From assembly GCF_000022265.1 (NCBI RefSeq), contig NC_011979.1:3510001-3542000 (forward strand): a DNA stretch of 32,000 nt. The letters are read 5' to 3'. The notes beneath the pieces were generated by a model. That model was given only the letters and a program-made list of their open reading frames with translations, was not told where the DNA came from and made no database searches. A program made the position numbers and the translations under genes. Of this stretch, positions 6,039-27,340 are shown piece after piece. Position 1 is the first letter of the stretch; each line of letters opens with the position of its first letter. The DNA is from Geotalea daltonii FRC-32. Its GTDB lineage: Bacteria; Desulfobacterota; Desulfuromonadia; Geobacterales; Geobacteraceae.

Positions 6039-6829
6039 TTTCCTTCCCCCGAATAATCGATAAACCCCTTATTGATCTCGGTGATCTTCCTGGTCAGCCG
6101 GTACACTCCTCCCCCTTCACGGGTCTTGCTGGCATCCGTATTTCCCTCGATGGTCGTAAGCAGGCCCCCGGCGACCTTCTCCACCAGGCCGGTGTGTCCC
6201 AAGCCGCCGCCATGATCCATGATGAAGACCATTCCCGGCTTGACCAGTTCAGGGTTTCCCACTGCCTGGGAACGCCCGATACGTGTTGCCCCGTGAGAAG
6301 TCGCCCGCTGCCAGTGGTCGAGGCATCCGGCCGTCTTGACCATGGGGTTATCGCAATCAAGCGCCTTTGCCGCCTCGTCAAAACACCAGTAGACGAAGGC
6401 ACAGCACCATGAAAGCCCAGTGGGAACGCCGGCCCGCTTCAGATAGGCATCCACCTGGGGACCGCGGTTGGAATTCTTCGGCACTTCCCGCACATGCTTC
6501 GCGTCCTCTCCGGCTGCCACCTGCACTACCCGGCCGAGCAAATCGCCGTCGGCCGTATCGCTCGCGGGAACCGTACCGTCACCGAAAAGCGACGCCCAGG
6601 TCAAGGATCCCACCTCACCGTCCTGCTTGAGAGGCCTGCCGGCAGCGTCCACATTGCGGGCCTGGAAGAGCTTGACCATCTGCTTCATCTTCGGCCCGTA
6701 ATTTGGATCGTCCGGGTCCAGCCTCAAAGCCGGATCGCTCCCTAGGACCTTATTCAGCCTGAGCTTCAATGCCTTGACGATAACTGCATCCTGTTCGCCA
6801 ACCTTGATTATCCGTCCCGGATATTTCAT
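6035..6829 (-). CDS. PG_binding_1 + CHAP/NlpC-P60-type peptidoglycan amidase/endopeptidase, no signal peptide
   Basis: N-terminal degenerate PG-binding repeat (VIVKALKLRLNKVLG...YGPKMKQMVKLFQ...DGEVGSLTWASLF). C-terminal catalytic Cys context GLSWCCAFVYWCF and His context GLGHTGLV...TIEGNTD. SD GAAGGAGGAG. Confidence 0.8.
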   Translation of the reverse strand: MKYPGRIIKVGEQDAVIVKALKLRLNKVLGSDPALRLDPDDPNYGPKMKQMVKLFQARNVDAAGRPLKQDGEVGSLTWASLFGDGTVPASDTADGDLLGRVVQVAAGEDAKHVREVPKNSNRGPQVDAYLKRAGVPTGLSWCCAFVYWCFDEAAKALDCDNPMVKTAGCLDHWQRATSHGATRIGRSQAVGNPELVKPGMVFIMDHGGGLGHTGLVEKVAGGLLTTIEGNTDASKTREGGGVYRLTRKITEINKGFIDYSGEGK

Positions 6830-6978
6830 GACTCCTCCTTCATGTGCCCCAATGGGGCAGGTTGCAGTTCAAAGGTCCCTCCCGCGTTCGATCGGCCTTC
6901 AACCCCTGAAACCCTTGCCAGAGCAGTTTTTGCTGAATATTGTCGAAAAAGATAACAGAGTTTTACCAAAATACTACA

Positions 6979-7020
6979 ACGTCATGCGTGCATTGCCTTG
7001 GAGCAACACACGCATGACGT
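6979..7020 (-). terminator. 12-bp perfect inverted repeat, likely terminator or RNA structure between two operons
   Basis: acgtcatgcgtg (6979-6990) and cacgcatgacgt (7009-7020) flank an 18-nt loop. On the minus strand the hairpin is followed by UGUAGUAUUUUGG. Confidence 0.4.
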
Positions 7021-7242
7021 GCAGATTGTTTGAAAAGATTCCCAGAGAGCGGGAATATCGATGGTGAGGGCTTTGGCAAGCCAATTACCGGGGAGGCGGC
7101 TGGACTAAGTTAAAGCAATATAATTTAAAACAACCATATTTCAGGACGCTGCCTCCCTTGGCGAAAATAAGGTTCAGGGTACCCGGCACACGGGCTGACC
7201 GTCGCAGGGTTCTTCATGTCATTTCTAGCTGCCATGCCGGCC

Positions 7243-7665
7243 TTATTCCCAGTCATGACTTTGATTGCAGGTCGAGCATTCAACCCTCAAATTCCTAAGG
7301 TTGTTAAAGGCGGCCTTTGCTTCTGAAGGTGTTATTACGCCTGCATGCTTTAACTCATCTCTCCATTTCCTTCTATGGCCAATCTGCACTCCTTCGTAAA
7401 GCACAGGCTGTTTACAATCTTCACATGCCCAAACCCGGGTCAACCTTCCGTCAATGCTAATAGTTTTAAATGGTTGATATACCTCAAGCATATAAAGACG
7501 TGTGCTGAGTGAGTTGGAGTAATCGTGATCATACCAATCAGGCCTCCCCAGGGTGTCCACGTACCCATTTACAGCTTCTTGATCTACTGCTTCATCAGCC
7601 TGCCAATTCACCTCGAATGTAATGCCTGGAGGTAACGCCAGTTCTGCTTTATAAGATGATTTCAT
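7243..7665 (-). CDS. stand-alone HNH (GH-E-like) nuclease-domain protein
   Basis: The C-terminal 60 aa read CEDCKQPVLYEGVQIGHRRKWRDEL...FNNLRNLRVECSTCNQSHDWE, i.e. CxxC...GH...N...CxxCNxxH, a beta-beta-alpha-Me HNH signature resembling the GH-E polymorphic-toxin clade. The N-terminal ~85 aa are unassigned. G+C is lower than its neighbours (26/60 in one counted line). Confidence 0.55.
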   Translation of the reverse strand: MKSSYKAELALPPGITFEVNWQADEAVDQEAVNGYVDTLGRPDWYDHDYSNSLSTRLYMLEVYQPFKTISIDGRLTRVWACEDCKQPVLYEGVQIGHRRKWRDELKHAGVITPSEAKAAFNNLRNLRVECSTCNQSHDWE

Positions 7666-7723
7666 GGTTCAGTCCTCTTCGTTTTTGCTGCGAAAGCGAG
7701 CACTATTACATCCACATCGCCCA

Positions 7724-14224: not shown

Positions 14225-15109
14225 TCAATCAGAATAGGTCATACCCAGTTTACGAATGACACTATGATTGGTTTTTAAGGAAATGGAGCGGGGATCTTCA
14301 ACGGGTATGTCGGCAGGAGCCAGTCCACCAAGGAGTCGATTGGCCATTTCCCCGGCCTGCTTTCCCATGGCAAAACGGTCTGCCTCCAGAGCGGCAGCGG
14401 CGCCATAGGCAAGGTAAACATCGGAGAAGGCAAAAATCGGTTTAGCCTGCTCCATGGCAAAGAGGAAGTAAGCATCAACAGTTCCTCTCGTCATGGCCGT
14501 TGCATCGGGCAAAAGCCACAGCGAATCAACATTGCCCTTAAGGGTGGACAACTGCAGTGGCGTTTGACGCGGGTTGTGAACCTCACGCAGTACGAGATCG
14601 ACCCCGGCACGTTCTGCGGCCTGACGTGCACGTTTTATATAGGCCCCGCTACGCGCCTGGCTGAAAAGGATACCCACCTTCCTGACCTGGAATGTTTTAA
14701 ACAATGTGATGTACCGTTCAGGTGAGATTGTCATTCGTACGCCAGTGACATTGGCTGGAGTATTTCCGGATGAGAGGTTAAGGGCCATCACCGAGATTAT
14801 GGGAATGCGCCGGATCTTTTTCAAAGCTGCCAGGGCGGAATCGCCTATGGCCAGTATGAGGGATGGCTGTTCTTCCCTGACGATTCTGGCAATGTCTGTT
14901 TCGGAGTAGTCCTCTAGAACGATCGTGTGGCTGCTGACGGTACAGGCAGTCCTGAAGCCCTTGAAGGCCTCGCCGTAACCGGAATGACGTGTGCTCTGCA
15001 CTATTAGAACCTCGGCGGCCAGTGCCTGCGCCGGCAACAGCAGAAAGACTGCCAGTATAAGCGGCAGGAGCAGTTTCAAAACTTGAACCTCATGCCACCT
15101 TCCAGCCAC
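14225..15109 (-). CDS. periplasmic ABC-type substrate-binding-like protein (ABC_sub_bind type)
   Basis: Signal peptide (LLLPLILAVFLLLPAQALA). The overall pattern (IVQSTRHSGYGEAFKGF..., ILAIGDSALAAL, LWLLPDATA) resembles the PF04392-type proteins often paired with TonB receptors and sensor kinases. The start may instead be the TTG at 15079, which overlaps the upstream TGA. Confidence 0.65.
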   Translation of the reverse strand: MAGRWHEVQVLKLLLPLILAVFLLLPAQALAAEVLIVQSTRHSGYGEAFKGFRTACTVSSHTIVLEDYSETDIARIVREEQPSLILAIGDSALAALKKIRRIPIISVMALNLSSGNTPANVTGVRMTISPERYITLFKTFQVRKVGILFSQARSGAYIKRARQAAERAGVDLVLREVHNPRQTPLQLSTLKGNVDSLWLLPDATAMTRGTVDAYFLFAMEQAKPIFAFSDVYLAYGAAAALEADRFAMGKQAGEMANRLLGGLAPADIPVEDPRSISLKTNHSVIRKLGMTYSD

Positions 15110-16899
15110 CGGCCGGTGTTTTCGAGCATAAACAGCTGATACTGGGAATTGTCGAAAACATTATGCACCGTAAAAAACAGCTCTGGAGCATATTCCCTCA
15201 GTGAAATACTTTTTGTCAGGCTCAGATCCCAAAGAACGGAAGCATCTCTGGCTCCATTTTCAGGCACGGCATTCCAGCGAACGTAGTTTCCGGTCAGAAC
15301 ACCGCGCAAACCAGTATGGCTATCGTCATATTGGAGAGAAAGCTTGGCCGAATGAACAGGCACCGTCTTGATCCGCTCGTTGGTTTCCCTATTGCGGGCA
15401 TCGGTAAAGGTATAACCGGCGGTAAAGAAGAGACCATACAAGGGGACCGTACGCACCTCAAGTTCACCCCCCTGCCTTACGGCTTGCTTCAGGTCCGGAA
15501 TATAAGCGTTGTCAATATCCCAGAGATGGTTGTAAAAGAAAGTTCCTTTCAACCAGACGTATGGAAGTTGGGAAGATTCGGCGCCTACCTGGGCCGTCCA
15601 GACCTGCTCCGGGGGTTTCACACGCAAGGCGTTGGGAAGACTGTAACCCTTGGCGCCATAACAACGCAGCACTGTCTTTTCGGTCAGTTGATAGGTAGCG
15701 CCCAGGGTATAGCTGAATAGATTGCTATCTATTCCGGTGTCGTCAAAGCGAATACCGGGCAGTATTGTCAGGTCGCCGATGGTGTAGGCGCCATTGGTAT
15801 ATATTCCCCAGCGGTCCATCACCCGCTCATCAAGGTCTGCCTGGAGCAGAGTCACCCTCTGACTGACAGTGTCATGTTGATAATCGACGCCTACGACCAG
15901 ATTTCGCCATGAATCACCCCAGGTAACTTTGGCACTGGTTCCCCTGGTTCTTTCTCGGGCCGTATAGGAAAAATCCCCCAGTAAGACGCCGGCATAGGTG
16001 TGGGCAAAATATTCATGTGTTTTGCGGGATTCCCGGACCAATAAATCCAGTTTCAGCCTGTTATGAAAGGGATAGACGAAATTGAGGAAGGAATAACCAT
16101 AGCTGGAGCTGTCGGAATCCTTCACATCGAACTCAGAGGAGGAAAAAAGCCCCCTGACCGCCCCACGATAGTCGAAACCAAGAGTTAGATAGCCTTTGGC
16201 AGGGAAGTCATAGGTAATCTTTCCGTAGGCGTTGTTTCCATTGATCTGGTTATCGGCGACAAGCCCGCTGGAGTGGAGATTGCCGCCACTCAGGTAATAG
16301 CCGAAACGATTTATGGTACCGCTGAGCTCCCCACGCATGTCCGATGTGGACTTCTGGCCGTAGGATGAAAAGACGCTGCCAGCGACAGCCTTATCAGCTT
16401 CTGGAGATTTTGTTACGATATTGATGACTCCGCCCAGGGCCTGACCCCAGGCAGCAGAAGCCGCCCCCTTTATAATCTCGACCCGCTCGATGTGCTGCAC
16501 GGAAATCATTCCCAGGTCCGGGGCATTTTCCACCAGGTCATTTTGGGGCACACCGTCTATAAGGACCTGGATATGCTTGCTGATCGCCCCTTGGATATTG
16601 AAAAAAGACCAGCTGCCGGGAGTTCGCACCTGTTCCAGCTGGATACCTGGTACGGTGTTAAGCACCTCGGCCAGGGTGTGGACATTGAGGGATTCAATCT
16701 GTTCGGCGGTGATTACGGTGACATTCTCGGCAATGCGAGAGGCGGGGCGTGGCGAAGGTGCAGGTGCATCGGAAATCTTTTCCGTAAAAAAACCGAGTTT
16801 GGTCAACTCATCTTCCGCTTGATCACCCCAGGCTGGAACCACTGCCATAAGAGCTAAGACCATAAAAATAAGTTGCATTTTAACGCGAAACAGCTTCAA
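15076..16899 (-). CDS. TonB-dependent outer-membrane receptor
   Basis: Signal peptide, plug region (ENVTVITAEQIESLNVHTLAEVLNTVPGIQL, VLIDGVPQND, ERVEIIKGAASAAWG), a long beta-barrel region and a terminal aromatic residue (..GGMRFKF). The start is either TTG 16899 or ATG 16878. Confidence 0.85.
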   Translation of the reverse strand: MKLFRVKMQLIFMVLALMAVVPAWGDQAEDELTKLGFFTEKISDAPAPSPRPASRIAENVTVITAEQIESLNVHTLAEVLNTVPGIQLEQVRTPGSWSFFNIQGAISKHIQVLIDGVPQNDLVENAPDLGMISVQHIERVEIIKGAASAAWGQALGGVINIVTKSPEADKAVAGSVFSSYGQKSTSDMRGELSGTINRFGYYLSGGNLHSSGLVADNQINGNNAYGKITYDFPAKGYLTLGFDYRGAVRGLFSSSEFDVKDSDSSSYGYSFLNFVYPFHNRLKLDLLVRESRKTHEYFAHTYAGVLLGDFSYTARERTRGTSAKVTWGDSWRNLVVGVDYQHDTVSQRVTLLQADLDERVMDRWGIYTNGAYTIGDLTILPGIRFDDTGIDSNLFSYTLGATYQLTEKTVLRCYGAKGYSLPNALRVKPPEQVWTAQVGAESSQLPYVWLKGTFFYNHLWDIDNAYIPDLKQAVRQGGELEVRTVPLYGLFFTAGYTFTDARNRETNERIKTVPVHSAKLSLQYDDSHTGLRGVLTGNYVRWNAVPENGARDASVLWDLSLTKSISLREYAPELFFTVHNVFDNSQYQLFMLENTGRWLEGGMRFKF

Positions 16900-17064
16900 A
16901 TGGATTCCTACTTTAATGAGACGACAAAAGGGAATGGAAACTGCATGTTATAAATTCATGCTTACCATCAAATTTTGCTTTTTAATAACAGATTGTCGAT
17001 TGAGAGTCCATAGACTTTTGTAGGACATCCTTCGGGATGTATTCTGTACGGCGGAGGTGGCAAT

Positions 17065-17166
17065 ATGGAGAACGAAACCGTAGAACTGGAAGTTCTGGAC
17101 GAAGGGCAGTCGAATGAAGAAGAGAATAATACCTGCTGCATGTCAGGCCTTACACGCATTTTCTGA
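17065..17166 (+). CDS. 33-aa RiPP precursor candidate (acidic leader, Cys-Cys core)
   Basis: This ORF is not in the supplied track because it is under 60 aa. GGAGGTGG lies 5 nt upstream of the ATG. Translation: MENETVELEVLDEGQSNEEENNTCCMSGLTRIF. It lies 58 nt upstream of a radical SAM/SPASM gene and is followed by a terminator hairpin. Confidence 0.65.
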   Translation: MENETVELEVLDEGQSNEEENNTCCMSGLTRIF

Positions 17167-17185
17167 AACTGTACCAACCTGTCTG

Positions 17186-17213
17186 GGGGGAGCCACAACT
17201 CCCCCACTTTTTT
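17186..17213 (+). terminator. intrinsic terminator/attenuator between precursor and maturase
   Basis: gggggag (17186-17192), a ccacaa loop and ctccccc (17199-17205), then ac + tttttt (17208-17213). Confidence 0.55.
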
Positions 17214-17224
17214 GAGGCAGAAAG

Positions 17225-18553
17225 ATGCCACTTTCCCGCTACCTGAAAATTTATCCCTGCCCGGACAAAGCCGATTCATTCATCGTCTACTCCACCAGGA
17301 AGGGTTCCTTGATAAGGGTCTCGTCAGCCCTGCTGGCAGCAGCCCGTGAAGGCACCCTTGGCGAAGCGGACCGGCGTACGCTCAGCCGCCTGGCAGTTTT
17401 CACCGAAGATCTGGATGCCGAGAGGAACGAGATGCTGTCGACGGTAGACAGAGCCAATCGGAGCACCAGCAGGTTCAAGGCCATCATCGTCCTCAATCTT
17501 GACTGCAACCTGGCCTGCCCCTACTGCTACGAAGACCCCTTCCGCGGCAGACATTACATGTCGGCAGCTACCGCCGGACAGCTGATAGAAACGCTTGTCG
17601 ATAATCAGCTGAGACAAGATCGCGACGTCCAGTTGGATTTCTATGGTGGAGAAGCGCTGCTTTCAAAATCTTTACTGACGAAAATAGCTGCTGCCCTCTC
17701 GGATGCCGCCCACAGCCACGGGAGAAAGTTCTCATTCGGCATGGTAACCAATGGCACCCTTCTCACCAGGTCAACTGTTGAAGAATTGCTGCCTCTCGGC
17801 TTTACCGGCGCCAAGGTTACCCTTGACGGGCCGAAGGAAATCCATGACCGGCAACGTCCCTTCATATCGGGCAATGGCAGTTTCGATACCATCGTCAGCA
17901 ATTTGAAAGGGGTATGGGATCTCATAGACCTACAGATCGGGGGTAATTTCTCCCCCGACAATTATCGCCAATTCCCCCGTCTGCTCGACCACTTGCTAAA
18001 GGAGGGACTGACGCCGGATAAGGTAGGTCTGATACAATTCTCGCCCATCATACCGAAGGCGGCCAAATCCGCCGAAATCAGCTTCGTATCGGGCTGCACC
18101 TCTTCTGCCGATGCCTGGCTTGCGGAGGCGGCACTCTTTCTGCGGGAGGAAACATTAAAGCGGGGGTATGCAGTGCATAAACCTGCAATGGCCGCATGTA
18201 TGGTTGAATTTGATGACTACATGGCAGTAAATTACGACGGCAGGCTGTTCAAATGTCCCGCTTTTATCGGCTGGCCGGAGCTGTCGGTCGGAACATTGAC
18301 GGATGGAATAAGTGATTATTCCGTCTCCCATAACCTGAACCTGTGGAAAAACGAACAATGCCTGGACTGCAGCTACCTGCCCATCTGCTTTGGCGGCTGC
18401 AGGTTCCTCACGCTGGTAAAAAACAATGCCATTGAGGGATTAGATTGCCGTAAGGAATTTTTCGATGCGACCCTGGAACAAATCGTCATTCAGGACTTGC
18501 GGTATCGAGCTGGAAAGAAACCGAAAGAAAGGTCGCAAACAGCGCAGACATGA
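17225..18553 (+). CDS. radical SAM/SPASM peptide-modifying maturase
   Basis: CNLACPYCYE (CxxxCxxC) after an N-terminal region of about 90 aa that could be a RiPP recognition element. C-terminal SPASM cysteines are present (CPAFIGW..., CLDCSYLPICFGGC). It resembles what I recall being annotated as a putative geopeptide radical SAM maturase in Geobacter. This is unverified. Confidence 0.85.
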   Translation: MPLSRYLKIYPCPDKADSFIVYSTRKGSLIRVSSALLAAAREGTLGEADRRTLSRLAVFTEDLDAERNEMLSTVDRANRSTSRFKAIIVLNLDCNLACPYCYEDPFRGRHYMSAATAGQLIETLVDNQLRQDRDVQLDFYGGEALLSKSLLTKIAAALSDAAHSHGRKFSFGMVTNGTLLTRSTVEELLPLGFTGAKVTLDGPKEIHDRQRPFISGNGSFDTIVSNLKGVWDLIDLQIGGNFSPDNYRQFPRLLDHLLKEGLTPDKVGLIQFSPIIPKAAKSAEISFVSGCTSSADAWLAEAALFLREETLKRGYAVHKPAMAACMVEFDDYMAVNYDGRLFKCPAFIGWPELSVGTLTDGISDYSVSHNLNLWKNEQCLDCSYLPICFGGCRFLTLVKNNAIEGLDCRKEFFDATLEQIVIQDLRYRAGKKPKERSQTAQT

Positions 18554-20118
18554 ACCTGCAGAAACTGAAAAAAAACTTTCGCTTCAGGCTGTTTGCCATT
18601 TTCACGGTCATCACCGCCCTTATCACCGCCCTGTTTACCGGGCTTCTGGTAAATCACGATATTGCCTCATACCGCTTGCAGGCAGCGGAAAAAGCCCATC
18701 TTCTCGCCTCACTTCTTGCCAACACCATACGTCTGCCGCTATATGCGGAAGACAGACAGACACTGGAGCATGTTGCCCGGGAAACGGTCCGAAAACCGGG
18801 GGTTGTCCATGTTGTCATCGCTAATCAGGAAGGTACGGTACTTGTCGATCTGGTAAAACAGAACGTGGAGGATCCGGGCACCGTTACCAGTGTCACCGTG
18901 AGTGTCACTTCCGGCAGCATGGCCGATTCAGCCGAATCGGCGCTGACCGGGGACGGCACGGGTGAGGCAAATCCCATCGGCTCGGTACGCCTGTACCTGA
19001 ATTCGGAAGACCTGCCGAAAAAGATCCGGGACACGATTATCTTTACCTCGACTCTGGCTCTTATTTTCTGGTTATCGGTTTTGGCCCTCAGTTTTCTCGC
19101 CCTGAAAAAAGCTACCCGGTCATTCAACGCTCTGATGCAGGGAGTCGAGCACATCAGGCAAGGCGACTATTCGGTGAGGATTGCCATCCAATCAAACGAT
19201 GAGCCTGAACAGGCTGCCATGGCAATCAACGATCTTGCAACGACCCTGCAAAATCGGGAGCTGGAAAACCGACGGCTGCAGTCGGAACTGCTCAATGCCA
19301 TGAAAATCGAGGTCCGGGAAGAAAGAAAGCTGCTCATGGCCAAGCTGATCCAGACCAACAGGATGACCTCCCTCGGGCTGCTGGTCTCCAGCATGGCCCA
19401 CGAAATCAACAACCCCAACGGCGCAATAAGACTTGCTGCACAGTACCTTAACAAGGCATGGAAGGATGCTGTCCCCGTGCTGGAAGGGGTAGCCAGGGAG
19501 GAGGGTGATTTCAGCTTGGGCGGGATTCCACTGAGCATGGCAGGTGAAGAAGTGATCAGGAGCGGTGAGAATATCATCCGCAATACCGGGAGGATCGAAG
19601 CGGTAATCAGGAACCTCAGGTCCTACAGCCTGGGAGAACGCAACGAGTTGCGCCCGGACATGGATGTCAACATGGTCATAAATGATGCCCTGGCTGTAAT
19701 CCGCGCCCATGGCCGTCATGGCAATCTGGAGATTGCCGTGGAACTGGCTGACGACCTGCCGCTGGTGAACGGCAACCGGCACCAGATGGAACAGGTCATT
19801 ATCAACCTGCTGTTGAACGCCATCCAGGCAATGCCCGGTGAGAGCGGCACCATTAATCTTACAACCGCCAGGGATGGCCGTGCCGAAGAAGTGCTTATTT
19901 CCGTGAGAGACGAAGGAGTCGGAATTCTTCCGGAAAACCAGGAGAGGCTCTACGAGCCTTTTTTCTCAACGAGAATCGATGACGGTGGAAGCGGATTGGG
20001 TCTTTACATTTCCAATTTCATCATCACCGAACACCAGGGAAAGCTGGAGGTACTTTCCTCGCCCGGAGTGGGAAGCACCTTTACCATCAGGCTTCCCGTG
20101 CCCCAATCGGCAGGATAA
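18550..20118 (+). CDS. HAMP-domain sensor histidine kinase
   Basis: Two TM helices flank a periplasmic region of about 140 aa. HAMP domain, H-box MAHEINNPNGAI, N-box NLLLNAIQAM, G-boxes DEGVGI and GGSGLGLYIS. The start overlaps the maturase stop (ATGA at 18550-18553). Confidence 0.9.
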   Translation: MNLQKLKKNFRFRLFAIFTVITALITALFTGLLVNHDIASYRLQAAEKAHLLASLLANTIRLPLYAEDRQTLEHVARETVRKPGVVHVVIANQEGTVLVDLVKQNVEDPGTVTSVTVSVTSGSMADSAESALTGDGTGEANPIGSVRLYLNSEDLPKKIRDTIIFTSTLALIFWLSVLALSFLALKKATRSFNALMQGVEHIRQGDYSVRIAIQSNDEPEQAAMAINDLATTLQNRELENRRLQSELLNAMKIEVREERKLLMAKLIQTNRMTSLGLLVSSMAHEINNPNGAIRLAAQYLNKAWKDAVPVLEGVAREEGDFSLGGIPLSMAGEEVIRSGENIIRNTGRIEAVIRNLRSYSLGERNELRPDMDVNMVINDALAVIRAHGRHGNLEIAVELADDLPLVNGNRHQMEQVIINLLLNAIQAMPGESGTINLTTARDGRAEEVLISVRDEGVGILPENQERLYEPFFSTRIDDGGSGLGLYISNFIITEHQGKLEVLSSPGVGSTFTIRLPVPQSAG

Positions 20119-20125
20119 ATCGCAC

Positions 20126-21541
20126 TCATGGGCTGCCGAATGCCGCAAGCTTCTTCTGCAAGGTGGGCCTGGAAATGCCCAACAGCTCGGCAGCAGCGGT
20201 CTTGTTACCGTTTGTTATCTTTAACGCCTCATCTGACAGCAGGCGCTCCATGTCGGAAAAATTGGGAAATTGCTCAAACGTGGCCTGCAGGCAAAAAATC
20301 CCAGCATATGCCAGCTTAACTTCCGGTTTGCCGCTTCCCCCCTTTTGCTTCAGTTCGGGAAAGTCCTCCAGGGTAAGAATCTCCCTGCGGCTCTGGGCAA
20401 CCCCCTTGTATATTTTGCTGATAAGCTCCCGAACGTTTCCCGGATAGTCATATTCCTGCAAAGCGACCACCAGTTCACGGGAAATATCCGGTACCGGCTT
20501 TTCGTAAGAACTTGCTGCCTTGGCCACATAATGCTCCACAAGGGGAATGATATCCTGGCTTCTATCCCGGAGAGGCGGAATATGCAGCTCATGGAAACAG
20601 AGGCGCTGGTAAAGGTCATGCCTGAATTTACCTTGGGTAATCAGAGCCGAGAAGTCATGGTTGGATGCGGCGATGATGCGTGCATCGGACTTTATCAGGA
20701 CATCGGAGCCGAGCCGGTAGTATTCGCGTTCTTGCAAAAGCCGCAGCAACTTGACCTGGGATTCCATGGTCATGTCACCTATCTCGTCAAGGAACAGGGT
20801 TCCCCCCTGGGCCTTGGCGATCAGTCCTTCCCTGGGCTCGTTGGCGCCGGTGAAAGCGCCTTTTTTGTGGCCGAAGAGGGTATCACTGAACATGAAGTCA
20901 TCCAGGCCGGCAACATTCAGGGGGACGAAGGCTCCGGAGAACTCGCTGGACCTGTGGATGGCTCTGGCGATCAGTTCTTTGCCGACACCGGTCTCGCCCT
21001 GGATGAGGACGGGATGGCATGAGGGTGCGACCGTTTCTATCAACTTGAAGAGGGACTGCATTTTTTCGCTTCTGGTGATCAGGTCACTGAAGTGTTCCGG
21101 GTGGGCCAACGGCTCGCCGAGGAGATAGCCTTTCAGCACCTTGTTCTGATTGGCAAGTTCGCTGATGTGGAACGCCTTTTCCACGGTCAGCAGCAGGCGG
21201 TCGGCATCCACCGGCTTGGTCATGTAGTCGAATGCCCCTTGCTTGATGCATCTGACCACCGTTTGCAGGTCGCTGACAGCCGTTATGACGATAACCGGGA
21301 CATGGGGGAACCTGCGTGCCAGCAACGGAAGGAGTTCCGCACCGGTCAGGCCAGGCATTATCCAATCCATCAGCACCACCGAATAGTTGTTCTGCTCCAG
21401 CCTGGACACCACTTCACTGCTGTCGGAAATGGTCTCTATCCCCCTTATGCCGTTGGATAGAAGCATCAGTCTCAATTCATGCAGAACAGCAGTATCGTCA
21501 TCGACGATCAGGACCGATTGATTGGCAACATTGTTATTCAT
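20126..21541 (-). CDS. sigma54-dependent response regulator (NtrC family enhancer-binding protein)
   Basis: REC domain (VLIVDDD...VLMDWIMPG), an AAA+ sigma54-interaction domain (GETGVGKE, GAFTGA, ...) and a C-terminal Fis-type HTH (AAAELLGISRPTLQKKL). Confidence 0.9.
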   Translation of the reverse strand: MNNNVANQSVLIVDDDTAVLHELRLMLLSNGIRGIETISDSSEVVSRLEQNNYSVVLMDWIMPGLTGAELLPLLARRFPHVPVIVITAVSDLQTVVRCIKQGAFDYMTKPVDADRLLLTVEKAFHISELANQNKVLKGYLLGEPLAHPEHFSDLITRSEKMQSLFKLIETVAPSCHPVLIQGETGVGKELIARAIHRSSEFSGAFVPLNVAGLDDFMFSDTLFGHKKGAFTGANEPREGLIAKAQGGTLFLDEIGDMTMESQVKLLRLLQEREYYRLGSDVLIKSDARIIAASNHDFSALITQGKFRHDLYQRLCFHELHIPPLRDRSQDIIPLVEHYVAKAASSYEKPVPDISRELVVALQEYDYPGNVRELISKIYKGVAQSRREILTLEDFPELKQKGGSGKPEVKLAYAGIFCLQATFEQFPNFSDMERLLSDEALKITNGNKTAAAELLGISRPTLQKKLAAFGSP

Positions 21542-21798: not shown

Positions 21799-21856
21799 AT
21801 AGCACTAGATAGATATGCAATTCATCCCAAGTAATGGCCATGGGCAAGGAAGCAGA

Positions 21857-22255
21857 ATGGGAATTCTGACTGAAGAAATGGGCCGGTTCATTGAAGAAGC
21901 AGGGCATGCGTTCGTAGCTTCGGCAGACGCAACTGGACACCCTCACCTGGCCGCAGGACGGGATCTCCACGTCAGAAACGATTCGCACCTTGTCTTTGAA
22001 GCCTGGTTATGTCGCACCACAATGGAAAATATTACGGCAAATCCGATGGTTGCAGTTGCGGTGGCGACTCCTGCTACCGATAAAGGCTACCAATTCGGGG
22101 GTGTGGTCGAATCAGCTACAGATACTGCCATAATGGACGGCTACACAAAAGAGGGGGAAGATTCAGCCCTGCCTCAAGTGCAGTACAGACTGGTAATCAG
22201 AGTTGACACGGTAATGGAATTCAGCTCGGGAATCCATTCCGACCAGCCGCTGTAA
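21857..22255 (+). CDS. pyridoxamine 5'-phosphate oxidase-like FMN-binding family protein
   Basis: MGILTEEMGRFIEEAGHAFVASADATGHPHLAAGR... is a typical PNPOx-like split-barrel N-terminus. The ATG at 21857 has GGAAG upstream, while the track start at 21815 has no SD and abuts the repeat. Confidence 0.55.
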   Translation: MGILTEEMGRFIEEAGHAFVASADATGHPHLAAGRDLHVRNDSHLVFEAWLCRTTMENITANPMVAVAVATPATDKGYQFGGVVESATDTAIMDGYTKEGEDSALPQVQYRLVIRVDTVMEFSSGIHSDQPL

Positions 22256-22357
22256 GCCCGCATCAATCAAATCACGGTCATTGCAATCACCTGGCAGCCC
22301 AGCAGTCTCACGACCGGCATAGCAAAATATCCGACTGCAAACAATGGGAGAATGTCC

Positions 22358-22624
22358 ATGGAAAAAAGAAAATTCGCCCGGCTGGCAATGCACTCCGACA
22401 CCAACATCAAATTCAATAACACCATGTACAGCGGTACCGTCCGGGACCTCAGCATGAAGGGTGCATTTGTCACGACCGATGTCCTGATTCCGGTGAACGA
22501 GACGGTGGAAGTGACCATCTATACCTCTTCCACCCCCAACATGCTCTGCGATCTGCAGGCGAAAGTCATCAGATCTACGGAATACGGCATCGGGCTGGAA
22601 TTCGAAAAGACAGTTCTCGATTGA
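22358..22624 (+). CDS. single-domain PilZ protein (c-di-GMP receptor type)
   Basis: RKFAR (RxxxR) and DLSMKG (DxSxxG) motifs at the correct spacing. GGGAGA lies 6 nt upstream of the ATG at 22358. Confidence 0.75.
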   Translation: MEKRKFARLAMHSDTNIKFNNTMYSGTVRDLSMKGAFVTTDVLIPVNETVEVTIYTSSTPNMLCDLQAKVIRSTEYGIGLEFEKTVLD

Positions 22625-22627
22625 ATC

Positions 22628-23644
22628 TCAGCAGATTCGCGGCAACTGCTCACCCGTCAGCATATCAACACCTCTGATCCCACCAACTACCGTTTCCATA
22701 ACCATTTTGCCGGCAGAAGCGTCCACAACCTCGCCGATAACGGCCGCATCCAGGCCAAGGGGGTGGCGACGCATGATTGCCAACACCCTTTCCGCAGCGT
22801 CGGCAGCAACTACCGCCACAAGTTTTCCCTCATTGGCAATATGAAGAGGGTCCAGCCCAAGTATGGAACATACGCCGCTGACTGGACTTTTGACAGGCAA
22901 GGCCGCTTCCTGGAGGCTGATGGTGACATTGGATTGCAGGGCTATTTCCTTGAGGGTGGTGGCAACGCCCCCACGGGTAGGATCCCGCAGCACATGCAAA
23001 TATTCCCCTTCCGGGAGCAATTCAGCCACCAGCCCATAGAGGGCAGCAGTGTCGCTTTGGATGCCGGCTACAAGTTCAAGCCCGTACCGCGCTGCAAGCA
23101 CGGCTATGCCGTGATCGCCGATGGTGCCATTGATAATGATCTTGTCCCCTACCCTGGCGCCGCTGCCGCTAATATGCAGCTGGTGCTCAAGGATGCCGAT
23201 GCCGGAAGTGTTGATGAAGATACGATCGGCCTTGCCCCTGGGGACCACCTTGGTATCGCCGGTGACGATCGCTACCCCGGCCAGATCTGCCGCTGAACGC
23301 ATGGAGGCGAGGATGACAGAAAGATCACTCCTGCTGAAGCCTTCCTCTATGATCAGACCGACACTCATATGGAGAGGCCTCGCTCCGACCATGGCAAGAT
23401 CGTTGACGGTCCCGTTCACGGCCAGGTCGCCGATATTCCCACCGGGGAAAAAGATGGGATCGACAACATAGGAATCGGTTGTGAAAGCAAGCCTGCTCCC
23501 TTCATGATCCACAACAGCGGCGTCGTTCTGCCCCGTAAGGGAGACACCGGAGAGGGAGGGGATAATGAGCTGGTCCAGAAGCTGATGGGAGAGCTTTCCG
23601 CCACTTCCATGGCCAAGAAGAATCAAATCTCCATTCATTTTCAT
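22628..23644 (-). CDS. hypE: hydrogenase maturation protein HypE
   Basis: 338 aa with an AIR-synthase-like fold pattern and the diagnostic C-terminal PRIC. Confidence 0.95.
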   Translation of the reverse strand: MKMNGDLILLGHGSGGKLSHQLLDQLIIPSLSGVSLTGQNDAAVVDHEGSRLAFTTDSYVVDPIFFPGGNIGDLAVNGTVNDLAMVGARPLHMSVGLIIEEGFSRSDLSVILASMRSAADLAGVAIVTGDTKVVPRGKADRIFINTSGIGILEHQLHISGSGARVGDKIIINGTIGDHGIAVLAARYGLELVAGIQSDTAALYGLVAELLPEGEYLHVLRDPTRGGVATTLKEIALQSNVTISLQEAALPVKSPVSGVCSILGLDPLHIANEGKLVAVVAADAAERVLAIMRRHPLGLDAAVIGEVVDASAGKMVMETVVGGIRGVDMLTGEQLPRIC

Positions 23645-23718
23645 CCTCTTATGGATGCCGCTTTTGCGCCCCGGCTGCGTAGGTCTTATTGCCCGAACAC
23701 ATGGATATGCAGCATTTC

Positions 23719-24804
23719 TTAATGGTTATAATACGCGGCGCAGCTGCCTTCGGAGGAGACCATACACGGCCCTACCGGACCTTCCGGGGTACACTGCATG
23801 CCGAAAAGAGGACAATCGAAGGGTTGAATTTTCCCTTTCAAGACATCGCCGCACCTGCAACCCTTTTGCTCCTCCTGCTCCTCTACCTTGACTGGAAGCA
23901 CCTTCTCAGCGTCGAACCGGGCATAGCTTCTTCTGATCTTCAGCCCACTGCCGGGGATGATGCCGATGCCGCGCCAATGGCAATCACAGGGAGTAAATAC
24001 CTGTGACATGACTTCCCTGGCCTTGCTGTTCCCGTCCCGTTTCACCACCCGGCGGTATTGGTTCTCCACATTCGCCTCCCCGGCAATCTTCTGCCGGATC
24101 AGCATCTCCACCCCCTGCATGATATCCGCCGGTTCGAAACCGGTCACCACGCAGGGGATATGGTGTCTTTCCGCAAGTGGGAGGTAGGCATCGGTACCGA
24201 TGACGGCGCTCACATGGGCCGGGCAGATAAAGCCATGGATTGCCGCAGCCGGTTCCGCCGCCAGCATTTCCATGGCTTTAGGCATTGTTTTGTGGCCGGC
24301 CAGGACTAGATAGTTATCCAGCTTTTGCCTGGCTGCCATAAGAATACTGGCGGCAACGGCCGGTGCCGTGGCCTCGAATCCGATGCCTGGAAAAATGATC
24401 TTTCTGTCCGGGTTCCGTGCCGCCAGTGCAACCCCATCCAGAGGCGAGTTGACGATCCTGATATCCGCACCACTGGCCCGTTCCTCCATGAGAGAACTGG
24501 ATGAACCAGGCACCCGCATCATATCGCCGAAGGTGGCGATAATGACATCGGGAAGCCTGCTCAGGGCGATGGCGCGATCCAGATAGTGGTTTGGAGTGAC
24601 GCAAACAGGGCAGCCGGGGCCGGAAATAAGCCTCACCTTCGGCGGGAGAAGAGACCTGATGCCGAACCGGCTGATGGCCATAGTATGGGTACCGCAGACC
24701 TCCATCAAGGTCAGAGGCACTTCCAGGCCGGCAGTCAGCGCCTCGATGCGCTCGGCATAGCCATTGACAATCTCTTTATCACCAAAAAGTTTAACGTAGT
24801 TCAT
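23719..24804 (-). CDS. hypD: hydrogenase maturation protein HypD
   Basis: GPGCPVCV motif and C-terminal Cys cluster (CRCGDVL..., GPCMVSSEGSCAAYY). Confidence 0.95.
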   Translation of the reverse strand: MNYVKLFGDKEIVNGYAERIEALTAGLEVPLTLMEVCGTHTMAISRFGIRSLLPPKVRLISGPGCPVCVTPNHYLDRAIALSRLPDVIIATFGDMMRVPGSSSSLMEERASGADIRIVNSPLDGVALAARNPDRKIIFPGIGFEATAPAVAASILMAARQKLDNYLVLAGHKTMPKAMEMLAAEPAAAIHGFICPAHVSAVIGTDAYLPLAERHHIPCVVTGFEPADIMQGVEMLIRQKIAGEANVENQYRRVVKRDGNSKAREVMSQVFTPCDCHWRGIGIIPGSGLKIRRSYARFDAEKVLPVKVEEQEEQKGCRCGDVLKGKIQPFDCPLFGMQCTPEGPVGPCMVSSEGSCAAYYNH

Positions 24805-24842
24805 CCAAGTCCATTCCGAAAAGAGCCGGCGGAGGCTCTGGC

Positions 24843-25073
24843 TTACCCCATAGCATCGGACGAAAGAACCTCACGCATCAGGGCCAGGGTTTCCCGGGCG
24901 ACTTCTTCATCCAGCCTGGAGATGGCGAAGCCCGCATGGACGATGACAAAATCCCCCACCTGCACTTCATCGCCCAGAAGCATCAGGCTCGCTTCCCGCC
25001 TGACGCCGTCGATTTCGGTAATGGCCGTATCGTTATCGATGCTGATGATCCGCATCGGCACAGCTACACACAT
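24843..25073 (-). CDS. hypC: hydrogenase maturation chaperone HypC
   Basis: 76 aa, with the N-terminal MCVAVP (essential Cys2). Confidence 0.9.
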   Translation of the reverse strand: MCVAVPMRIISIDNDTAITEIDGVRREASLMLLGDEVQVGDFVIVHAGFAISRLDEEVARETLALMREVLSSDAMG

Positions 25074-27340
25074 GCGTCGCTCCTTCCGGCAATGACCGCC
25101 TGGCCCAGGGCAAGCCCGCCGTCATTGGGGGGGACCAGCCGGTGGCTGAAGACCAGGAAGCCCTTTGCCACTAGACGGTCATGGACCTCCCCTGACAGGA
25201 GCTTGTTCTGGAAAACCCCACCTGACAGAACCACACGGTTCACACCATGGGCTTTGCCTGCCTTGACGCAGATATCGGCTGTGGCTGCGGCCACAGCCTT
25301 ATGGAAACGAAGCGCCATGTTGGCACCGGCTTCACCGGCAAGCAGGTCGTTGACCAGGCCGTCGATGATGTAGCGGCAATCCAGGGTGAATTTTTCATCT
25401 GTAGCAACGATGGCGTAGGGATAATGCCATTCCGTTGAACCTTTTTCGGCCAGGGCCTCAAGTTCAATGGCGGCCTGCCCTTCATAGGACACATTGCTGC
25501 GTAAGCCGATGAGAGCCGCCGCCCCATCGAAAAGCCTGCCGCAACTGGATGTGAGGGGTGAGTTCAGGCCTTGTTCCAGCATTCGCTGCAAAAGTCTCTT
25601 ATCCCCATCTGCCAGGACCGAAAAGACGGGAAGCTTGAGAGAAAAAGCATCGCTGCCGAAAACGGCATGGCAGTGGGATAGGGCCATCCGCCATGGCTCC
25701 CGCACCGCTGCGTCACCTCCGGGAAGAGGAACCTGGGAAAAATGGCCGACTCGCCTGAAATTGCGGTAATCGCCCAAAAGGAATTCCCCTCCCCAGATGG
25801 TGCCGTCCGGTCCATAACCGGTGCCATCGAACACAACCCCCAGGACAACTCCCTCCAGACCGTTTTCCGCCATGCAGGCGGCCATATGGGCATGGTGGTG
25901 CTGCACCGGCACCAGTAGCTGGCTAGAGGCCTGAGCATAGGCGGTGGACTGATAGTCGGGATGGAGGTCGTGGGCGACAACCTTCGGGTTGACCGAAAGG
26001 ACCTGCCTCAGGTGGGAAACAGTCTGGTCAAGGAACTGCAGATTAGGCTCGTTTTTCAGGTCCCCCAGGTGCTGACTCATGAAGGCATGGTCGCCACGGG
26101 TCAGACAAATGGCCCCCTTCAGCTCGGCTCCCACCGCAAGTACCTGCTTCTGTGCCTCGTGCAACCGAATGCTTCTGGGCACATAGCCCCGGGAGCGGCG
26201 CAAAAAGATAGGTTTGCCCTGAAAAACCCGGATCACCGAATCGTCGTTACGACAATGCACCCGCCGGTCATGGCCAAGAAAATAATCGGCAATGCCTGCG
26301 AGAGACTCCACCGCCTCCCTGTCCCGGTACGCCACCGGCTCATCCGAGACATTTCCCGAGGTCATGACCAGGGCGATGAAATCGCGAAGCAAAAGGTGAT
26401 GAAGGGGGGTTGATGCCAGCATCAGCCCGAGATAGTCATTGGCAGGGGCAACCTGGGGAGCAATCCCGTTTCCCTCACGCTTGCACAGAAGGACGATGGG
26501 TTTTTCCGGCCCGGCCAGCAGGCGCTCCTCAATGGGGTCCAGGCGGGCGAGGACACCGGCCTGCGTCAGGTCCCTCACCATAAGGGCAAAGGGCTTCTCA
26601 TTGCGTTTTTTCCGGTGCCGCAGCTCGGCAACGGCTGGGCCGTTAAAGGGGTCCACAGCCAGGTGGTAACCGCCGGTCCCCTTTACGGCAACGATCTTGC
26701 CCGATTTCAAAAGACGAATGGCCTCTGCGACAGGATCACCAGCAACTTTCTCACCAGTCGCAGTGATTAGGTACAGCCTGGGGCCGCAAACCGGACAGGC
26801 ATTGGGCTGGGCGTGAAACCGCCTGTCTGCCGGATTCTCATACTCGGCACGGCAGTCGTCGCACATGGGGAAATCTGCCATGGTGGTTGCCTGGCGGTCG
26901 TAGGGAACACCGGTGATGATGGAATAGCGGGGACCGCAGTTGGTACAATTGATGAAGGGATATTGATAGCGGCGGTCGCCGGGATCGAACAGCTCCGCCA
27001 GACAATCGGGACATACGTCACAGTCGGGTGAAATCTGCAGTTCACCTCCGCCGGAGCTGCTGGGCAGAATGGAGAAATCGCGGCTGTCTTCGGTTGCAAT
27101 AATACTTCTAATGATCGAGGTAATGGCAGCAAGTGGTGGAGCATCATCGTTCAGGGCCGAATAAAAGAGATCCAGCTGCTGGTTGCTTCCTTCAGCCTCA
27201 AGCAATACTCCACGGGAGGTATTTCTCACCCACCCGGTCAGCTGGTGCCGCCGGGCCAGGCGGTAAACGAAGGGGCGAAATCCCACCCCCTGAACAATGC
27301 CTTCCACCTGGACCCTGATCCGCTCCTGCCCCATCATCAC
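25064..27340 (-). CDS. hypF: carbamoyltransferase HypF
   Basis: 758 aa with an acylphosphatase-like N-terminus (VEGIVQGVGFRPFVYRLA), two CxxC-x18-CxxC zinc fingers, and YrdC-like and Kae1-like regions. Confidence 0.95.
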   Translation of the reverse strand: MMMGQERIRVQVEGIVQGVGFRPFVYRLARRHQLTGWVRNTSRGVLLEAEGSNQQLDLFYSALNDDAPPLAAITSIIRSIIATEDSRDFSILPSSSGGGELQISPDCDVCPDCLAELFDPGDRRYQYPFINCTNCGPRYSIITGVPYDRQATTMADFPMCDDCRAEYENPADRRFHAQPNACPVCGPRLYLITATGEKVAGDPVAEAIRLLKSGKIVAVKGTGGYHLAVDPFNGPAVAELRHRKKRNEKPFALMVRDLTQAGVLARLDPIEERLLAGPEKPIVLLCKREGNGIAPQVAPANDYLGLMLASTPLHHLLLRDFIALVMTSGNVSDEPVAYRDREAVESLAGIADYFLGHDRRVHCRNDDSVIRVFQGKPIFLRRSRGYVPRSIRLHEAQKQVLAVGAELKGAICLTRGDHAFMSQHLGDLKNEPNLQFLDQTVSHLRQVLSVNPKVVAHDLHPDYQSTAYAQASSQLLVPVQHHHAHMAACMAENGLEGVVLGVVFDGTGYGPDGTIWGGEFLLGDYRNFRRVGHFSQVPLPGGDAAVREPWRMALSHCHAVFGSDAFSLKLPVFSVLADGDKRLLQRMLEQGLNSPLTSSCGRLFDGAAALIGLRSNVSYEGQAAIELEALAEKGSTEWHYPYAIVATDEKFTLDCRYIIDGLVNDLLAGEAGANMALRFHKAVAAATADICVKAGKAHGVNRVVLSGGVFQNKLLSGEVHDRLVAKGFLVFSHRLVPPNDGGLALGQAVIAGRSDACV

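Follow-up and report, generated by a model that had tools for sequence, protein, structure and literature searches.

In Geotalea daltonii FRC-32, a small gene encoding 33 aa and the gene that follows it are almost certainly, judging from their sequences, a geopeptide precursor and its maturase, and they lie among conserved partner genes for a TonB-dependent outer-membrane receptor, a periplasmic binding protein, a sensor histidine kinase and a response regulator. The genes were analysed in a 32,000-nt stretch of contig NC_011979.1 (hereafter the window; unless another locus is named, coordinates are those of this whole stretch). The pair is a known, bioinformatically defined family of ribosomally synthesized peptides with post-translational modifications (RiPPs) that is already annotated; the new part is its neighbourhood context. 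Taken as a whole, the reading that we slightly favour is that this geopeptide pair would yield a peptide with a thioether-type modification, which would act in a signalling loop through the receptor module. The core of the locus consists of the following elements.

17053-17057, + strand: GGAGG, read from the sequence as the Shine–Dalgarno site of the precursor; 7 nt separate it from the ATG.
17065-17166, + strand: geopeptide precursor, 33 aa, MENETVELEVLDEGQSNEEENNTCCMSGLTRIF; TIGR04229 and NCBI WP_012648279.1.
17225-18553, + strand: geopeptide radical S-adenosylmethionine (SAM)/SPASM maturase, 442 aa; TIGR04280.

The precursor matched the 'geopeptide' model TIGR04229 with 40.5 bits against a cutoff of 30 (E = 1.4e-10), its residues 8-28 aligning with profile positions 1-21 of 22. 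It is built from a LEVLDEG leader motif (residues 8-14), a 9-aa spacer, the adjacent cysteines Cys24-Cys25 and an 8-aa tail, MSGLTRIF, and its open reading frame (ORF) ends 58 nt before the maturase ATG. RefSeq holds the identical 33-aa peptide as WP_012648279.1, 'MULTISPECIES: geopeptide [Geotalea]'. A first-pass annotation of the window, made from the sequence alone, had called this ORF unannotated, which is wrong because RefSeq names the exact peptide as a geopeptide. Other parts of that annotation held: the translation and the strong Shine–Dalgarno sequence are present as described, the proposed pairing of a RiPP-type precursor with a radical SAM/SPASM maturase was borne out by above-cutoff matches to TIGR04229 and TIGR04280, and these two models are the TIGRFAM geopeptide families that it had named for Geobacter. 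It had also described the product as uncharacterised; in agreement, we found no publication on geopeptide, on TIGR04229 or TIGR04280, or on the product or function of the family. The Geobacter literature that was matched concerned lasso peptides and SbtM, not geopeptide, and TIGR04280 carries the model type 'hypoth_equivalog'.

Related loci were collected from one genome per GTDB species, which gave 473 loci with relatives of the maturase, and the best 80 of these 473 were compared; metagenome data contributed 1,356 maturase clusters at E <= 1e-30 among 8,000 candidates scored. A check for a small ORF beside orthologous maturases, together with a precursor logo, had been proposed by the first-pass annotation. 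A homologue of the precursor on the same strand and upstream of the maturase was found in 78 of the 80 loci, that is, in every locus that could be tested (78/78), the sequence available 5′ of the maturase in the other two being just 139 and 71 nt long. A Shine–Dalgarno-like motif precedes the chosen start in each of the 76 called precursor genes (76/76). The logo revealed a common architecture of 0-15 N-terminal residues, the leader motif [LI]-[EV]-[VI]-L-[DE]-E-G, a spacer of 8-12 residues, the Cys-Cys pair preceded by a small residue, and a tail of 6-12 residues. In the form [LI]x[VI]L[DE]EG the leader motif fits all 78 testable loci, and both its Gly and the Cys-Cys pair were kept in 80/80. 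In the leader motif, mean pairwise identity reached 59%, compared with 16% in the spacer, 13% in the tail and 54% in the maturase. Judged from these alignments, [LI]x[VI]L[DE]EG with its invariant Gly is under protein-level selection. In character the tails vary between hydrophilic (..GG.SAR[KN]) and strongly hydrophobic or aromatic; they fall into conserved classes and are 7-9 aa long in 69/80 loci. An acidic leader followed by adjacent cysteines had been put forward as the substrate layout; the cysteines stand as a family feature (80/80) and the acidity does not, since leader net charge runs from -9 to +1 across the family and the acidic residues that occur N-terminal to the Cys-Cys pair are not conserved.

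Some precursor genes depart from the common form. Tandem geopeptide genes occur in two loci, one (L009; 5023-5106 and 6865-6942) with unlike tails and the other (L076; 6434-6520 and 6812-6898) with the same tails behind unlike leaders, and the precursor of a third locus (L017; 6877-6975) has three Cys in a row. Geopeptide loci are confined to Geobacteraceae and relatives, all in Geobacterales or Desulfuromonadales with a single exception (L053), found in a metagenome-assembled genome labelled Dongiaceae bacterium, an alphaproteobacterial family; this placement probably stems from faulty binning and not from horizontal transfer.

The maturase matched TIGR04280 with 723.7 bits against a cutoff of 400, residues 1-428 covering the profile from position 1 to position 428, its full length. 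In NCBI its homologues are called 'geopeptide radical SAM maturase', and the 100% match is the Geotalea daltonii FRC-32 protein. The SAM-cluster motif CX3CX2C (C94/C98/C101) is invariant across 53 homologues, as are C291 and the full SPASM motif (C325-X13-G339-X4-C344, C379-X2-C382-X5-C388-X3-C392 and C408), for which the seven-Cys pattern CX9-15GX4C, then CX2CX5CX3C, then C was used as the criterion; the SPASM domain model TIGR04085 scored 51.8 bits against a cutoff of 27. An AlphaFold model of the protein (pLDDT 89.1) found CteB as its best fold match in the PDB (E = 2.5e-22, template-modelling score (TM) 0.66-0.69), followed by SuiB, anSME, TigE and ChlB, with EpeE and PqqE among its other fold relatives. 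CteB was also the best solved relative by sequence (E = 4.4e-23). Residues 1-80 are predicted to form a beta3-alpha3 domain with strands at 7-11, 18-23 and 28-33 and helices at 34-42, 47-55 and 63-80. The N-terminal 88 aa modelled alone reached a pLDDT of 92.5, and their top PDB fold match was TbiB1, the RiPP recognition element (RRE) of a lasso peptide system, with bound leader, although this match was weak (E = 0.038, probability 0.92, TM 0.40). Pfam gave no match on residues 1-87, and a profile of 20 N-terminal domains run against PDB sequences yielded only spurious matches to beta-trefoil designs. The modelled domains are arranged as in a leader-guided SPASM maturase.

The chemistry of the maturase was approached through curated families. 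The best NCBIfam matches below threshold were TIGR04463, PapB, CefB, Clo7bot, a Nif11-type maturase, the SCIFF maturase and QhpD, and those of them that have a known chemistry (PapB, SCIFF and QhpD) form thioethers. None of the characterised families was reached: PapB scored 139.5 bits against a cutoff of 340, the SCIFF maturase 110.8 against 425 and RumMC 46.3 against 720, and the QhpD model, at 108.1 bits, also stayed below its cutoff.

Around the precursor–maturase pair lie the genes of the conserved module.

14225-15079, - strand: periplasmic binding protein of PF04392 (ABC_sub_bind; 87.9 bits) with a signal peptide; the NCBI 284-aa protein P0124.
15076-16899, - strand: TonB-dependent outer-membrane receptor, 607 aa, divergent from the geopeptide gene; Plug domain PF07715, 84.1 bits.
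18550-20118, + strand: sensor histidine kinase; Pfam HAMP, HisKA and HATPase_c, and a weak CHASE8.
20126-21541, - strand: sigma-54-dependent response regulator, convergent with the kinase; Response_reg, Sigma54_activat and HTH_8.

The ATG of the kinase gene overlaps the TGA of the maturase gene (ATGA), and the two therefore belong to the same operon. The kinase has two transmembrane segments around a periplasmic domain of ~130 aa, followed by HAMP, HisKA and HATPase domains; the response regulator is NtrC-like, with REC, AAA+ and Fis-type HTH domains, and scored below equivalog cutoffs. NCBIfam matches of the receptor were generic and all below cutoff, and no NCBIfam model reached its cutoff for the receptor, the binding protein, the kinase or the regulator.

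Neighbouring genes were counted in the 48 related loci with full flanks. A TonB-dependent receptor is present in 48/48, a kinase homologue in 44/48, the PF04392 binding protein in 39/48 by tblastn and the sigma-54 regulator in 21/48. In a locus where tblastn missed the binding protein (L031), Pfam finds diverged PF04392 proteins, two in number. In the usual layout one strand carries the regulator, kinase, binding-protein and receptor genes in this order, and the geopeptide and maturase genes run divergently on the opposite strand. Full-length kinase homologues, found in 25 of the 48 loci, mostly stand behind the binding-protein gene in the divergent operon, and binding-protein homologues adjoin the receptor; in the clade of the window the kinase has moved behind the maturase. 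Loci lacking the sigma-54 regulator carry hybrid kinases or a LuxR-type regulator. The output side thus comes as a sigma-54 activator, as hybrid kinase pairs or as a LuxR/GerE-type regulator with a HisKA_3 kinase, while receptor, binding protein, peptide and maturase stay constant; examples of this variation are L031 (1050-5485), L085 (6222-8446) and L083 (1811-3271). In a reciprocal test, four of five binding-protein homologues picked independently of the maturase sit in geopeptide loci with readable geopeptide ORFs, and a radical SAM/SPASM gene lies 4.4 kb from the fifth. We found no publication describing a link of receptor, binding protein or kinase to geopeptide.

All-against-all clustering of ORFs from 81 loci revealed no conserved protease, exporter, permease, second tailoring enzyme or other family, the remaining clusters being antisense shadow ORFs of conserved genes. 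The first-pass statement that the operon has no protease, transporter or second tailoring enzyme is thus confirmed at family level. Its picture of a two-gene RiPP locus survives in part: the pair is real, and the locus is not bare, as the co-operonic kinase and the conserved receptor, binding protein and regulator had been overlooked. In the window there is no ABC permease or ATPase near the binding-protein gene, which makes the PF04392 protein a candidate co-sensor. As far as gene content tells, a receptor, a permease-less binding protein and a kinase are the hardware for periplasmic sensing of a ligand too large for porins, and the modified peptide is the only locus-specific large molecule.

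Among the best 80 loci, ten assemblies hold two or three paralogous loci, each with its own receptor set, and the tails of co-resident peptides always differ. Nine of these assemblies carry pairs (L006/L012, L007/L020, L009/L015, L013/L045, L019/L058, L031/L052, L034/L056, L028/L070 and L032/L073) and one carries a triple (L036/L059/L065); co-resident tails are mostly one hydrophilic and one hydrophobic. The receptor (mean identity 40%) and the binding protein (36%) are both more diverged than the enzyme (54%). Tail similarity tracks receptor identity when the enzyme is controlled for, a small effect (partial Mantel r = 0.21, p = 0.001). These observations fit a pairing of ligand and receptor, whether in a signalling loop or through release and recapture.

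Two loci have additional genes around the receptor. In L083 (5085-7858, 3378-4534 and 8195-8803), a second receptor and binding-protein pair lies ~2 kb from the geopeptide locus without a peptide or kinase of its own and is flanked by three dual-specificity-phosphatase-like genes; it could be an extra 'eavesdropping' receptor. In the module of Geobacter sp. SVR (L081), a DDE transposase gene (6660-7829) stands between the receptor and binding-protein genes.

The space between precursor and maturase, and the leader 5′ of the precursor, contain the following RNA and promoter elements.

17186-17213, + strand: terminator-like hairpin, GGGGGAG-CCACAA-CTCCCCC (17186-17205), AC and T6 (17208-17213).
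17025-17040, + strand: UUCG-capped 6-bp hairpin in the 5′ leader, -8.0 kcal/mol, z = -2.0.
16931-16945, + strand: candidate sigma-54 -24/-12 element GGAATGGAAACTGCA, ~119 nt 5′ of the precursor ATG; weak, kept in L001 and L002.

The stem at 17186-17205 has 7 pairs, 6 of them G-C, around a 6-nt loop; it was matched by a simple terminator scan, and the hairpin at 17186-17213 folded with -14.8 kcal/mol in a 37-nt stretch. Both hairpins had been noted in the first-pass annotation and are present as described. To place the spacer hairpin in the family, 63 precursor–maturase spacers of 30-130 nt were compared with shuffled spacers. A stable hairpin (dG <= -10 kcal/mol) is present in 60/63 real spacers versus 5/63 shuffled ones, and the mean hairpin energy was -18.7 versus -6.1 kcal/mol. 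At least four T within the next 8 nt follow the hairpin in 32/63 spacers; in many others the T-run is absorbed into the stem, and many of the hairpins are terminators of the A-tract, stem and T-tract kind. On sequence grounds we read the spacer hairpin as a leaky intrinsic terminator or as a 3′-end stabiliser, which would raise precursor mRNA over enzyme mRNA. It is not read as a ribosome-controlled attenuator because no alternative antiterminator pairing was predicted: in both the minimum-free-energy and the centroid fold of 17100-17216 nothing pairs with the 5′ arm and the terminator stays isolated, and the upstream pairing in this fold is no better than in shuffles (z = -0.75). A similar stem sequence, GGGGGAGC...GCTCCCCC, often with A-tract and T-tract flanks, recurs in many loci, among them L008, L011, L016, L033 and the window (17186-17205), across loci whose maturases are only 50-60% identical; it may be a local terminator style or a conserved RNA element.

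The UUCG hairpin was equalled by 4 of 200 shuffles and is kept only in the two closest relatives, L001 and L002 (maturase identity to the window 96% and 75%), and not in L003. The predicted leader fold contains a further 7-bp hairpin just 5′ of it (17002-17019, + strand), and the fold of the whole 71-nt leader is no better than shuffles (z = -1.5). An Rfam scan of 16700-17400 gave only a chance match below threshold (REN-SRE, 16.2 bits versus 41). For the candidate sigma-54 element, the relaxed pattern GG-N8-[TC][TA]GC[AT] occurs in 19 of 78 upstream regions versus 7.2 +/- 2.6 in shuffled ones; if the element is real, transcription would start near 16957. A scan for the sigma-54 consensus (TGGCAC-N5-TTGCW context) found neither a strand preference nor a clear difference between loci with and without the activator, and an expectation-maximization motif search found no excess, with an information content of 7.38 versus 7.40 +/- 0.57 for shuffles. 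The only sigma-70-like match in the divergent intergenic region (16972-16999, - strand; TCGACA-16-CAAAAT) points towards the TonB-receptor operon; none was found there on the + strand, that of the geopeptide gene.

These observations allow us to propose how the system could work. The leader motif would dock on the RRE-like beta3-alpha3 domain at the N terminus of the enzyme, and the SAM cluster together with two auxiliary clusters would modify the Cys-Cys region, giving one or two thioether cross-links as in the nearest relatives CteB/SCIFF, PapB and QhpD. By analogy with these enzymes, thioether formation at Cys24 or Cys25 is the chemistry that we find most likely, with about an even chance. 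The spacer hairpin would stop most transcripts after the precursor gene, so that peptide mRNA exceeds enzyme mRNA. The mature peptide would be released and would re-enter the periplasm through the TonB-dependent receptor, the PF04392 protein would capture it there, the kinase would sense the complex of peptide and binding protein, and the regulator would feed back on the divergent promoters, closing a peptide signalling loop specific to the strain. The role of the peptide as ligand for the neighbouring sensing module is a tentative proposal, which we hold with somewhat less than even confidence. More doubtful still, though worth stating, is the wider idea that geopeptides are strain-specific pheromones of Geobacterales, perceived through a cognate receptor, a PF04392 protein, a HAMP kinase and sigma-54 or other regulators, with several orthogonal channels per genome.

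Several observations weigh against this proposal. No acceptor residue is conserved in the tail, so that the cross-link may be of another type or may not form; an absent tail acceptor fits C-alpha-type links or another reaction. By sequence, the N-terminal domain of the maturase matches neither PqqD nor any other RRE family, and its fold match is weak (TM 0.40). Release of the peptide is unexplained, as neither an exporter nor a leader protease is encoded. Tail similarity follows the maturase as well (r = 0.38), as joint inheritance of the whole module would predict, and the partial Mantel result is confounded by shared descent. A sigma-54 promoter at the precursor is only a candidate, the motif search being equal to shuffles and the enrichment of the pattern only ~2.6-fold. 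Last, the solved PF04392 proteins bind aromatic amino acids, not peptides (PMC10443332).

The enzyme may do something other than make thioethers, namely form a thiooxazole, epimerise a residue, cross-link the tail through C-C or C-O bonds or convert Cys to formylglycine, which we regard as somewhat unlikely. The low scores invite this reading, every match to a characterised family lying far under cutoff (PapB 139.5 versus 340, SCIFF 110.8 versus 425), as do fold relatives that include the lysine–tryptophan cross-linker SuiB, the sulfatase maturase anSME and the epimerase EpeE, and the tail without a conserved acceptor residue. The last point loses weight if the links are of the sactipeptide kind, where S-to-C-alpha links are independent of a particular acceptor side chain; moreover, the two cysteines are the only invariant core residues, and the closest solved enzyme by both sequence and fold, CteB, is a thioether synthase. 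Precedent for non-thioether chemistry exists in Geobacter itself, where SbtM turns Cys or Sec into a thio(seleno)oxazole (PMC9204691). A different idea would deny that the small ORF encodes a substrate: it could specify a regulatory leader peptide, with tandem Cys codons that link transcription termination at the spacer hairpin to the cysteine supply through ribosome-mediated attenuation. A short ORF with two adjacent Cys codons, a terminator-like hairpin 20 nt later and an iron–sulfur enzyme gene next to it is what such a device would look like, but this Cys-attenuator model was rejected, as no antiterminator was predicted and the upstream fold did not stand out from shuffles (z = -0.75). The conserved amino-acid motif with its invariant Gly and the match of the ORF to a curated peptide-family hidden Markov model also speak against it, and a SPASM maturase with an RRE-like domain needs a peptide substrate, of which no other is encoded nearby; we consider attenuation scarcely credible.

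The main rival to the peptide as ligand makes it the output of the module. The sensing proteins would respond to a different large compound outside the cell by activating the geopeptide operon, and the product would stay intracellular; the Cys-Cys unit could give rise, for instance, to a redox or metal cofactor, much as pyrroloquinoline quinone (PQQ) and mycofactocin arise from small peptides through SPASM enzymes. In favour of this, neither an exporter nor a protease is conserved; the solved PF04392 proteins take aromatic amino acids (PMC10443332); and with only the Cys-Cys pair and the leader motif invariant, the tail may be a follower that is discarded. The divergent promoters are well placed for co-regulation in either direction. 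We nevertheless find this reading fairly unlikely: the cofactor precursors PqqA and MftA have conserved cores, the two to three divergent copies with their own receptor sets seen in ten assemblies are unusual for cofactors, the constrained tail length (7-9 aa in 69/80) and conserved tail classes suggest that the tail matters, and receptor identity weakly tracks tail similarity. Possible too, if quite improbable, is a metallophore that uses the two thiols or a heterocycle derived from them, is released and recaptured through the receptor and the binding protein, as methanobactin is through MbnT and MbnE, and has its uptake reported by the kinase. A RiPP gene beside a TonB-dependent receptor and a periplasmic binding protein calls such a role to mind, vicinal cysteines are good soft-metal ligands, the host is a metal reducer, and the Geobacter SPASM enzyme SbtM makes a thio(seleno)oxazole (PMC9204691). 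No locus, however, encodes an inner-membrane ABC permease or ATPase or an exporter, and no metal-regulator gene is conserved; the receptor belongs to no specific siderophore-receptor family, and hypervariable tails with co-resident paralogues are unexpected for a chelator with a single job.

Comparison with known systems places the locus within the geopeptide NCBIfams TIGR04229/TIGR04280, with whose taxon range, gene order and Cys-Cys motif it agrees; it is a member and shows no difference. CteB, the ranthipeptide-type thioether synthase of thermocellin (PDB 5WGG/5WHY), is the closest solved enzyme by sequence and fold (TM about 0.67). Each enzyme combines an N-terminal domain of leader-binding type, putative in the geopeptide maturase, with a radical SAM core and a complete SPASM domain that carries two auxiliary clusters, and both have a small Cys-containing peptide encoded just upstream. 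They are, however, only ~20% identical, and the SCIFF maturase model scored 110.8 against 425; SCIFF peptides have six cysteines and a conserved core, whereas geopeptides combine a pair of adjacent cysteines with a hypervariable tail. Loci of the SCIFF type belong to Clostridia, and we know of no linkage of them to TonB receptors. PapB/freyrasin and QhpD/QhpC, which form Cys to Asp/Glu thioethers, are among the best sub-threshold matches (139.5 and 108.1 bits) and are likewise radical SAM/SPASM enzymes in which Cys thiols are the donors for cross-linking; geopeptides lack the CX3D-type repeats of PapA.

The partner genes recall methanobactin (Mbn) operons, in which the MbnA precursor is found with the TonB-dependent transporter MbnT and the periplasmic binding protein MbnE and the product is released and recaptured. 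Shared with these is the clustering of a RiPP precursor gene with a TonB-dependent receptor and a periplasmic binding protein. Tailoring in the Mbn system is by MbnBC, not by a radical SAM enzyme, and Mbn loci have an exporter and sigma/anti-sigma regulators, whereas the geopeptide locus lacks an exporter, carries a histidine kinase together with a response regulator and encodes hypervariable cores. The PQQ (PqqA/PqqE) and mycofactocin (MftA/MftC) systems resemble the geopeptide pair in having a tiny precursor directly 5′ of a SPASM enzyme with a PqqD-like leader-binding function, which is putative for the geopeptide maturase, and PqqE is a fold relative; these systems have conserved cores, cofactor products and several further enzymes, in contrast to the hypervariable geopeptide tails and the absence of further conserved enzymes. 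SbtM of Geobacter and Desulfobacteria is likewise a radical SAM peptide maturase that acts on Cys or Sec of a small peptide (PMC9204691), but it belongs to a different family with a GGUG/Sec substrate motif, and no SbtM-type model was among the 25 best NCBIfam matches listed.

Further genes of the window border the module on both sides. On its 3′ side (21815-27340) lie genes for a PNPOx-like protein and a 90-aa PilZ-domain protein, followed by the hydrogenase maturation genes hypE, hypD and hypF; the PNPOx-like, PilZ and hypE genes recur only in L001 and, without hypE, in L002, and are therefore outside the system. Upstream of the binding-protein gene is a patatin-like phospholipase gene (12565-13419, - strand), which also recurs only in L001 and L002, and further upstream a gene for a DUF2589 protein (10772-11425, - strand).

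Finding the precursor–maturase pair again adds little, as it is already catalogued. The family is large (473 loci) and its hosts are environmentally important metal reducers; with no publication found on its product, expressing the two genes together would reveal a new RiPP structure. Linkage to a receptor, a binding protein and a kinase turns an 'orphan RiPP' into a testable hypothesis on peptide sensing or recapture in Geobacter communities, which is relevant to the biology of biofilms and syntrophy. If true, the pheromone reading would mean RiPP-based cell–cell signalling in Gram-negative bacteria that depends on active import across the outer membrane, a mode of signalling that is, to our knowledge, undescribed.

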